From Macrostomum lignano (Eukaryota), in contig NIVC01005217.1 in NCBI GenBank assembly GCA_002269645.1, forward strand, positions 1 through 20,807: 20,807 bases of DNA, written 5' to 3'. A program made the translations under genes and the position numbers. The notes under the pieces were generated by a model. The model made no database searches and was not told the DNA's origin. It saw only the letters and a list, made by a program, of their open reading frames with translations. Positions 10,449-12,011 of this stretch are shown in pieces (positions within the stretch are counted from its first letter, which is position 1; every line of letters begins with the position of its first letter).

Positions 10449-10569
10449 CAGCCAATCAGAGCGCACGGAGACTAGAGCGAGCGGTCCCAAGCCAACGGCG
10501 ACCCCGGCCGCAGCAGGTGTGCCTCCCAATGTGCTCAACCAATGGGAAGCCAGCCCCGGCACTATAAGA
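10449..10569 (+). promoter_or_regulatory. Putative internal promoter for the 449-aa ORF
   Basis: CCAAT at 10452, 10526 and 10539; TATAAGA at 10563-10569, about 95 nt upstream of an ATG in good context (GACATGG). Confidence 0.55.
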
Positions 10570-10661
10570 AGACCCACGCCTGCCAGAGCTGGAAATCATC
10601 AATCAGAGAAATCATTCTGTCCTTCAATCGCTGAAGCATTCTATGAACTATCCAGCTTGAC

Positions 10662-12011
10662 ATGGACACGAAGCCTACCATCAATCGAATTCAGCTATGC
10701 TCCAGCTTACCGTCTGAGCGTCCTGCCAGCCCAGTTAGCCGAAAGCGGCCCCGTGACGCCATCCAAGAGGCGGAGGACGGCCCCGAGCCGCCAGCGGCGG
10801 CCTCCGCCAGGGTCGAAGAAGGTGACGAGACAATCGACCCGGCCAATGCTGGGGGCGACACCGCGGACATTTCGGACATGGCGGCCGAATTCGGCGAGGC
10901 GGCCCGCCGCCTGCGTGATGTTCTGCCCAACAGCCGCCGAAGTGTGGACATCGCCCTGCAAAGAGAAGAAGTCGATTGGGGTCAGGTGGCTGGCGAACCT
11001 TCGGCGACAGCTATGGATCTGGTGCACTGGGTCGGGCCTGAGTCCTATCATGGCCCACTCCAGGCCGAGGACAGGCATGCGACTCTAGAGCGCCAACTTC
11101 GCGACAACCTGGACCGGCCCTGTCTGCTCATCCTGTCAAAAGCGGCCCTGCTGGGATTGGTTGACAATACGCTGTTAATGTACATCGAGGCAGCGGCCCA
11201 GAGCGCCTACAAATACGCCCTCGGCGACCTAGTCCGGCAGGCCGCCAAGTTCCTCCGCAAGGTTGTGGATGAGGAACCATCACACCTGACAGCCCGGCCG
11301 CCGTCCTGTGCCCCCATCACAGCAATCTTCAGCACCTGCGATCGGCCGGTCTACAAGAAGGTGATCATCAGCTGCGCAGCCTCCTCTCAGATGACTAGAC
11401 AACTGACACCAACCCAGAGAGCCCGGCTATTGATTGGCCTGGCCAGCTTGGCCAGCCGCTGGGGCATGCTTCCTGCGGACCTGCCAGGGCTGCTCTGGGG
11501 CTTCCTGAGCGAGGGCGCCGAATGGGAAGAGGCTCTCGTCATCCACGACGGCATTCTTGCGGCCTCCGCGCCGGCCTCTGCGCCCCTCCTCTATGCGCCG
11601 TTTGCCACAGTGGCCTGGGCCGCCACTCTCTCGCAACGGTTCAATCGCCGCTGTGGGTGGGTGTTGGCGGCCCTGGGCGACGTTGAGCCCGGCTACGCGG
11701 GCCTGGCCGAGGTGCCCCGTGGCACTTTGCAGCATTTTGCAATCGCGCAGCCGCCCCTGTCTGCACCAACTCTGACACGGCTGCAACAAGTACGGAATGC
11801 GGCCTTCGTCGTCCAATGCCAAGCCCTGGGCATCCCGACTCTGCCGCAGTTGAGGGGCGTGCTGCGCAACGACATCTTGCCTAGCCGATGGCACCGAGTG
11901 GTGCTCACGGCCGCGGCAGCCCAACGTTATGTGGAAGCATGGGCAAGTGCCATGGCTCAGGTGGCGGCATATGGCCCGTACCAGCTAAATCAAGAGGCCC
12001 ATTTCGAGTAA
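10662..12011 (+). CDS. Uncharacterised 449-aa cargo protein, possibly nuclear
   Basis: Uninterrupted 1350-nt GC-rich ORF between AT-richer flanks. N-terminal disordered/acidic region with SPVSRKRPR (NLS-like), followed by about 300 aa of globular-looking sequence. I do not recognise a family. Confidence 0.8.
   Translation: MDTKPTINRIQLCSSLPSERPASPVSRKRPRDAIQEAEDGPEPPAAASARVEEGDETIDPANAGGDTADISDMAAEFGEAARRLRDVLPNSRRSVDIALQREEVDWGQVAGEPSATAMDLVHWVGPESYHGPLQAEDRHATLERQLRDNLDRPCLLILSKAALLGLVDNTLLMYIEAAAQSAYKYALGDLVRQAAKFLRKVVDEEPSHLTARPPSCAPITAIFSTCDRPVYKKVIISCAASSQMTRQLTPTQRARLLIGLASLASRWGMLPADLPGLLWGFLSEGAEWEEALVIHDGILAASAPASAPLLYAPFATVAWAATLSQRFNRRCGWVLAALGDVEPGYAGLAEVPRGTLQHFAIAQPPLSAPTLTRLQQVRNAAFVVQCQALGIPTLPQLRGVLRNDILPSRWHRVVLTAAAAQRYVEAWASAMAQVAAYGPYQLNQEAHFE

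Follow-up and report, generated by a model that had tools for sequence, protein, structure and literature searches.

The window, meaning the whole stretch of 20,807 nucleotides that was analyzed (Macrostomum lignano assembly GCA_002269645.1, contig NIVC01005217.1, forward strand), contains a whole LTR element with an orphan open reading frame (ORF) in the 3' part of its internal region and a putative spliced antisense gene overlapping that frame. Below, the partner is a Pol-bearing element of the same genome that shares the LTRs. The features are as follows.

2306-15287 (+), whole LTR element with LTRs, primer-binding site, polypurine tract and target duplication
2306-4423 (+), 5' LTR, TG...CA with terminal inverted repeats; CCAAT module at 3083-3095, TATA at 3140
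4427-4444 (+), primer-binding site, which we take to be tRNA-Leu-like
6794-8239 (+), gag, 481 aa; the first ~70 codons are common to the Pol-bearing partner
8218-8738 (+), GGGAAAC heptamer (8218-8224) and aspartic protease frame with a DGG motif
9328-9732 (-), antisense exon 2, 134 codons, acidic and Pro-rich, with a C-terminal hydrophobic segment
9733-10710 (-), antisense intron, 978 nt, GT-AG (CT..AC ends on the plus strand), covering the promoter candidate and start codon of the orphan ORF
10449-10569 (+), internal promoter candidate; CCAGCCAATC, AACCAATG and TATAAGA conserved in three lineages
10662-12011 (+), orphan ORF, open frame of 449 aa
10711-10951 (-), candidate coding part of antisense exon 1, ATG at 10951, 80 codons, probably in phase with exon 2
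12077-12105 (+), (TG)n tract; this tract and a short TG-rich stretch near 10195 are the two boundaries of the module that most ORF-less copies lack
13055-13071 (+), polypurine tract
13072-15287 (+), 3' LTR

The two LTRs show no substitution in 2117 aligned columns, with 6 gap runs, and a 4-bp target duplication, CTTT, is present at 2302-2305 and 15288-15291. The element appears to be young, with near-identical copies. The LTRs differ in length by about 98 bp, the 3' LTR being the longer one (2947-3042 versus 13810-13904), and both forms occur in the runs. LTRs, primer-binding site, polypurine tract and target duplication, together with the RT-RH-IN order of the partner (L052), are features of Ty3/gypsy elements; the assignment is based on 38-42% identity to canonical polyproteins of this genome. 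Nothing similar to RT, RH or IN is encoded in the element at 2306-15287, and a Gag with protease but none of these three domains is a TR-GAG-like combination. The GGGAAAC heptamer is presumably a typical -1 slippery site. The protease frame stops at the protease C-terminus; it is broken near 8358 in the window, and 33 sister loci keep a frame of 179-186 aa. A 2.4-kb leader without a long ORF (4424-6793) precedes gag. Three of the four runs leave positions 4460-6613 uncovered, and the runs show no sense joint that starts from the LTR; neither observation is given evidential weight. The LTR has a donor-like site at 3478, at which no splice joint appeared. Outside the element, a 111-codon frame at 15674-16009 (-), 390 bp away, resembles the start of a heparan-sulfate sulfotransferase (PF00685, E 0.016, under the cut-off), a stretch at 16149-16240 looks by eye like an intron-containing tRNA-Tyr (ARAGORN reported none), and 18127-20807 is an (ATCT)n array of 669 copies. 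Two other copies of the family (L052, L054) are inserted directly in (ATCT)n arrays.

The orphan ORF starts in the context GACATGG, and a short out-of-frame upstream ORF from 10643 occurs in the window lineage only. A preliminary description of this DNA had listed an intact ORF, three CCAAT boxes, a TATA-like box, a good start context and a basic motif, SPVSRKRPR, near the N-terminus; all of these were found in place, with RKRPR at residues 27-31. The basic motif is followed by an acidic low-complexity stretch at residues 33-76 (13 D/E versus 1 K/R), a predicted helical core at 153-288 and a conserved, alpha/beta-like C-terminal part. The protein as a whole is acidic (pI 5.7), and no DNA-binding motif was found in it. 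The same description had considered the product unlike Env, which agrees with the sequence: the 449-aa protein has no hydrophobic N-terminus, NxS/T site or furin site, its best 19-residue hydropathy (1.71) is internal, and signal peptide, C-terminal transmembrane anchor and glycosylation plus furin sites are absent from the window ORF, from a divergent intact copy (C100) and from a distant homolog (P0004).

Comparison with C100 gives 77% amino acid identity, a dS of 1.34 and a dN/dS of 0.106, with the differences distributed over codon positions 1/2/3 as 79/44/227 and the lowest dN/dS, 0.026, at the C-terminus. For a third lineage, now broken (C201), dN/dS is 0.095 and 0.104 over codons 141-372, and the range among the three lineages is 0.078-0.104. 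The dN/dS check proposed earlier thus yields 0.08-0.11 across three old lineages and not a value near 1. Over codons 73-449 the sense frame alone is free of stops, the other five frames containing 7-13 stops each. Sibling copies were also checked for disruption, and 30 aligned young ORF loci contain no nonsense substitution; 15 of the 30 are without indels, the other 15 have 1-34 indels, and non-synonymous and synonymous sites number 17 and 16 (P 0.005). The full frame of 449-450 aa is held by 16 loci and the module with the ORF by at least 37 contigs (41 matches, 40 of 42 candidates scored), locus counts being taken from the assembly, where one insertion may be represented twice. A HMMER search with the 449-aa ORF against 1.84 billion representatives returned three matches. 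P0001 and P0003 are unnamed Logan proteins, and P0002 was dropped as a spurious, repeat-driven match to a TPR protein. P0004, an unnamed protein of 437 aa that belongs to the P0001 cluster, aligns end to end at 30% identity. RKRP is kept in all three lineages, C100 having RKRPW where the window ORF has RKRPR, and the N-terminus of P0004 carries PAKTRR. C238, H295, Y311, W319, W333 and an HRV motif are invariant in all four homologous sequences that cover the region. Because dN/dS is low, many loci are intact and a 30% identical homolog exists, the ORF is judged to be real and selected: it is almost certainly a real gene, and by its substitution pattern is an old accessory gene under purifying selection. 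Divergence between the window and C100 is mosaic over 8700-12200, with a dS of 0.16 in gag (dN/dS 0.10), 0.27 in the antisense exon and 1.34 in the ORF, a pattern suggesting that lineages have exchanged the ORF module.

CCAAT boxes are located at 10452, 10526 and 10539 and TATAAGA at 10563. The identity of 10449-10461 with the LTR module at 3083-3095 is present as first described (CAGCCAATCAGAG), and an equally long word shared with the LTR arose in 10 of 1000 Markov resamples of 10200-10661. Its 11-mer core, which we take to fit the NF-Y consensus, is found in LTRs unrelated to this one and in tandem repeats of the host as well (58/106 loci, many of them copies of this element), and for these reasons the 13-nt identity does not show copying from the LTR. 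The CCAAT words are best read as two good putative NF-Y sites and not as a copied LTR module. The boxes at 10452 and 10539 and TATAAGA are kept in both divergent lineages, unlike the middle box at 10526, and three-way identity is 0.64-0.67 over 10332-10570 (0.67 at 10441-10570) versus 0.35 in the 5' UTR. Conservation thus supports the earlier claim of a separate promoter at two CCAAT boxes and the TATA motif but not at the middle box, and this footprint makes it quite probable that the ORF has its own CCAAT/TATA promoter. No start is visible at the promoter in the contigs that pass through it (X5 record 14, X6 record 20, X7 record 29), which are unstranded and of presumed RNA nature. At another locus (G000:C616), a 2.1-kb piece carrying the integrase of another element (L046:3955-6078) separates the TATA motif from the last CCAAT box; the C616 ORF is still open despite this insertion, which occurs at the same position in C3989 and C3922.

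The window gag was found at 56 or more loci (at least 56; 150 of 632 candidates scored). Twelve of the gag loci retrieved have no full ORF match: seven share a deletion between two TG-rich tracts, two have other deletions, two stop at contig edges (one of them L035) and one is a fragment, so that the gene has been removed by at least three distinct deletions. Copies without the ORF kept multiplying, and those whose 3' ends are in view have differing 3' flanks; the different flanks and the repeated deletions indicate that the gene is unneeded in cis. It has no detectable copy in the Pol-bearing partner or in the sister Gag-PR family and is thus dispensable for the lineage. No donor of the module was found. 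The broken third-lineage copy, C201 (L034:1094-2990), lies outside any LTR element beside a 60-bp tandem repeat of an unrelated gene; it has the same left boundary, no gag or pol within ~20 kb, and flanks that resemble an unrelated repeat-rich gene. One sister Gag-PR copy (G000:C151) carries a different cargo, with a 187-codon sense frame (L047:6879-7487, +) and a 203-codon antisense frame (L047:5887-6447, -). This segment is absent from four sister loci and has no family match except a low-complexity EBNA2 match under the cut-off.

The antisense splice joint was seen in three of the four runs (X1, X5, X6), from three studies, in unstranded contigs of presumed RNA nature, and is the sole splice seen in these runs. 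A genomic deletion was rejected as its source, no match starting or ending at the joint (40 of 42 and 40 of 65 candidates scored). The donor reads GTAAG in the window and GTGAG in C100 and C201. The frame of exon 2 is open in 21 of 38 sequences scanned (the window counted twice) and is broken in the window by frameshifts near 9613 and 9642; between C5257 and C100 its dN/dS is 0.215 (Fisher P 1.5e-6). Exon 2 is retained in copies that lost the ORF and is open also in ORF-less copies without this donor. Its product has no match in Pfam, and the hydrophobic segment reaches a hydropathy of 2.15; a membrane-anchored protein is likely. In the three lineages an in-phase open frame extends 90, 91 and 107 codons upstream of the donor; they share one ATG, 80-83 codons upstream of the donor and at 10951 in the window, that would serve as the antisense start. 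The candidate exon 1 overlaps codons 17-97 of the ORF and shares wobble positions with it, so that the openness of its frame lends modest support. Four PBS-like or YY1-like TGGTGG(C/T) motifs (9986, 10020, 10064, 10107) lie at 9935-10120 in a repeat of ~65-75 bp whose copy number varies, and the length of the antisense intron varies with it (976-1062 nt); packaging or factor sites are a possible role for these repeats.

The 449-aa protein has no match in Pfam, PHROGs or PDB sequences. Word-index protein searches with the ORF and with P0004 and a search of the ESM Atlas, which has low recognition, were blank, and metagenome and viral contigs yielded no homolog. Predicted models have a pLDDT of 45.7 at full length and 41.3 for the C-terminal part; the only confident part, residues 153-288, is all-helical, and predicted strands alternate with helices in residues 309-436. 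Foldseek with these low-confidence models (pLDDT ~46 and 41) returned nothing at E <= 0.001, and the best VIA Z scores were 7.4 (rmsd 2.9, 109 aligned, a generic helical bundle) and 3.9. Blank fold searches with such models exclude no fold and do not establish a new one, so the earlier proposal to search by homology and structure gave no known Env or housekeeping family on the sequence side and leaves folds unrestricted on the model side. A TatD-like identity is unsupported: the HxH, GExGLD and ETD motifs seen in true TatDs are absent, and the hhalign probability is 0.1-0.4%, with 9 and 13 of 60 block shuffles equal or higher, from shallow profiles. Class I methyltransferase and viral nucleoprotein readings were considered by eye only. 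Word searches of the open literature gave no account of the ORF or of a protease-less/Gag-PR pair. The accessible text of PMC12801592 and PMC13524379 does not mention such elements, families of which could be held in further supplements of PMC12801592 or in Repbase-type entries, and Troyka, as described in the accessible part of PMC12440569, is not the same kind of element.

The Pol-bearing partner was found at ten loci. It shares 2306-7003 and 12237-15287 with the window at 91-99%, that is the LTR, the 2.4-kb leader common to both and the first ~70 gag codons; it has a different Gag core and a single frame that encodes RT, RH and IN, and both accessory genes are missing from it. In seven stretches from six partner elements no protease was found by motif, tblastn or six-frame profile, although four canonical proteases of this genome are detected with the same protease query (E 2e-5 to 5e-8). 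Canonical polyproteins contain a protease, then a beta-rich segment, then RT. The partner retains the beta-rich segment behind a Pro-rich linker, and the window frame stops where the protease ends in canonical polyproteins. In a second pair, 16 loci combine a short protease frame with a gag of 41-50% identity, and their LTR and flanking DNA are shared at 80-98% with two Pol-bearing loci without detectable protease. Protease matches of at least 33% identity and E < 1e-6 are all in frames of 229 aa or less (150 of 992 candidates scored). The preliminary description had taken pol as lost; simple decay does not agree with pol being located on an LTR-sharing partner that itself lacks a detectable protease. 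Gag cores group by type and not by pair (44% between the Gag-PR types A1 and A2, 30% between the Pol types B1 and B2, 22-26% between A and B). The simplest reading, based on sequence identities and, for the second Pol type, on two loci only, would be that the split is old and that recombination has kept the LTRs alike. Segmented genomes are common in RNA viruses. Complementary domains combined with near-identical non-coding regions, the hallmark of a bipartite element, were found in two pairs, and a fully autonomous partner as in TR-GAG systems was not found, the partner loci examined lacking a protease. The two elements are likely halves of one two-part Ty3/gypsy element, and we infer that they depend on each other in replication; a protease of another family or of the host could serve the partner instead.

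The reality of the 449-aa gene and of its own promoter is much firmer than its function. We tentatively favor, at slightly less than an even chance, a trans-acting nuclear regulator that sustains expression from the shared LTR. NF-Y would drive transcription of the ORF from ~10590-10600, and the protein would be imported into the nucleus through the predicted RKRP signal. There it would act on the shared LTR through a conserved host partner, by co-activation or by shielding from silencing, so as to keep both halves expressed. Grande GENE23 (PMC7264820) and foamy-virus Tas (PMC8003144) serve as precedents. After co-packaging, the protease of the window half would cut the Gag-Pol of the partner, and the RT and IN of the partner would in turn copy the RNAs of both halves. 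Antisense transcription across the promoter would act as a brake. An acidic protein of pI 5.7 without a DNA-binding motif, and RKRPW in C100, argue against a regulator. A dN/dS as low as this would be expected of an enzyme or of interaction with a conserved host partner more than of an anti-silencing factor in an arms race. A rather unlikely alternative is that the protein was captured as an enzyme or pseudo-enzyme (nuclease, transferase or hydrolase), belongs to a family that is unrecognized or has diverged very far, and has RNA or chromatin as its target. The strongest constraint at the C-terminus (0.026), the invariant C238, H295, Y311, W319, W333 and HRV motif in four covering sequences and the predicted alternation of strands and helices in 309-436 would suit such an enzyme, with the DEDDy and GDSL ORF3s of rotifer elements (PMC5408684, accessible text) as precedent. 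However, the protein has no recognizable catalytic motif, it lacks the TatD motifs, and its profile-profile scores are no better than those of shuffled controls.

Location of the gene on the Gag-PR half, which must co-assemble with its partner, and the likely membrane-anchored product of its antisense neighbor would suit a cytoplasmic or particle protein that coordinates packaging of the two RNA halves or guards them against small-RNA attack, RKRP being incidental. Such a role is doubtful, since a stoichiometric particle protein needs no separate promoter, an N-terminal basic motif is kept even at 30% identity, and ORF-less and sister elements manage without the gene. The toxin or antidote suggested in the preliminary description, penalizing loss of the element, would be in keeping with an own promoter, strong conservation and a module on at least 37 contigs. 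It is very improbable, because ORF-less copies with different flanks persist: nine of 11 gag loci without a full ORF (L035 left out) lost the module by internal deletion, seven with the same breakpoints. No second cistron is linked as a partner, antisense exon 2 staying when the ORF goes, and repeated tolerated loss is expected of a trans-acting product and not of an addiction module. Least credible of all is a silent or passenger sense ORF over which the RNA is a leader of the antisense gene; the sole processed RNA seen is indeed antisense, but selection on the sense frame extends into young copies and stops abound in the antisense frames over codons 73-449. From the separate nuclear accessory protein proposed at the outset there remain a real, selected, non-Env accessory gene, a promoter footprint and a retained RKRP, while lost pol and the toxin/antidote component fall away. 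With the nuclear regulator as its sense product, the locus would belong to an active, old, segmented LTR retrotransposon lineage in an animal, made up of a Gag-protease half and a protease-less Gag-RT-RH-IN half with common LTRs and mutual need, the Gag-protease half carrying a swappable cassette of a new nuclear protein family and an antisense membrane-protein gene as a sense/antisense switch; for this complete picture the evidence is evenly balanced.

The 449-aa ORF defines a protein family without a name or fold that is kept across lineages with a dS above 1 and in a 30% identical homolog, and offers a handle on the function of orphan accessory genes in LTR retrotransposons. The two-part context may matter more than the ORF itself. 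If a two-part gypsy element is real, it becomes possible to test for co-packaging, for a protease acting in trans and for deletion variants that cheat. Annotation anchored on RT, such as the pipeline outlined in the accessible text of PMC12801592, would miss the Gag-protease half.

The comparisons that follow draw on the accessible parts of the cited papers. Grande GENE23 (PMC7264820; PMC11963269) is an orphan gene located in the 3' part of the internal region in a Ty3/gypsy element, with its own promoter and a nuclear product; it is also found in non-autonomous elements, is antisense and plant-specific, and has a counterpart, TRP28, in Retand. Like the Grande aORF, the window gene is a conserved extra ORF after gag/pol and before the 3' LTR, but it is sense, animal, without a Pfam match and overlapped by a spliced antisense gene. 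The ORF3s of the bdelloid rotifer elements Juno and Vesta (PMC5408684) are likewise family-specific non-env cargo at the env position with modular gain and loss, and differ in being recognizable enzymes or transmembrane/coiled-coil proteins, typically with spliced messages, in elements with pol. The planarian giant gypsy Burro (PMC6431247) is also a flatworm gypsy with host-manipulating accessory domains, which unlike the window gene are recognizable and mostly fused in a single huge polyprotein. Foamy-virus Tas/Bet (PMC8003144), with an internal promoter near the 3' end and a nuclear regulator of the LTR, and HTLV-1 HBZ, as antisense counterpart, are analogies only; no sequence similarity to them was found, there is no env here, and the role of the window gene is predicted. 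TR-GAG/GAG-PROT and BARE-1/BARE-2 (PMC13570524) resemble the present element in keeping Gag and protease, lacking RT, RH and IN and having LTRs in common with a partner. Their partner is described as autonomous, whereas that of the window has no detectable protease and dependence is likely mutual. Florendoviruses (PMC4241990) have, as here, two components with complementary domains and near-identical non-coding regions, a bipartite layout called unique among viral retroelements in that paper; they are extinct plant Caulimoviridae without LTR or integrase, whereas the window holds an integrating animal LTR element.
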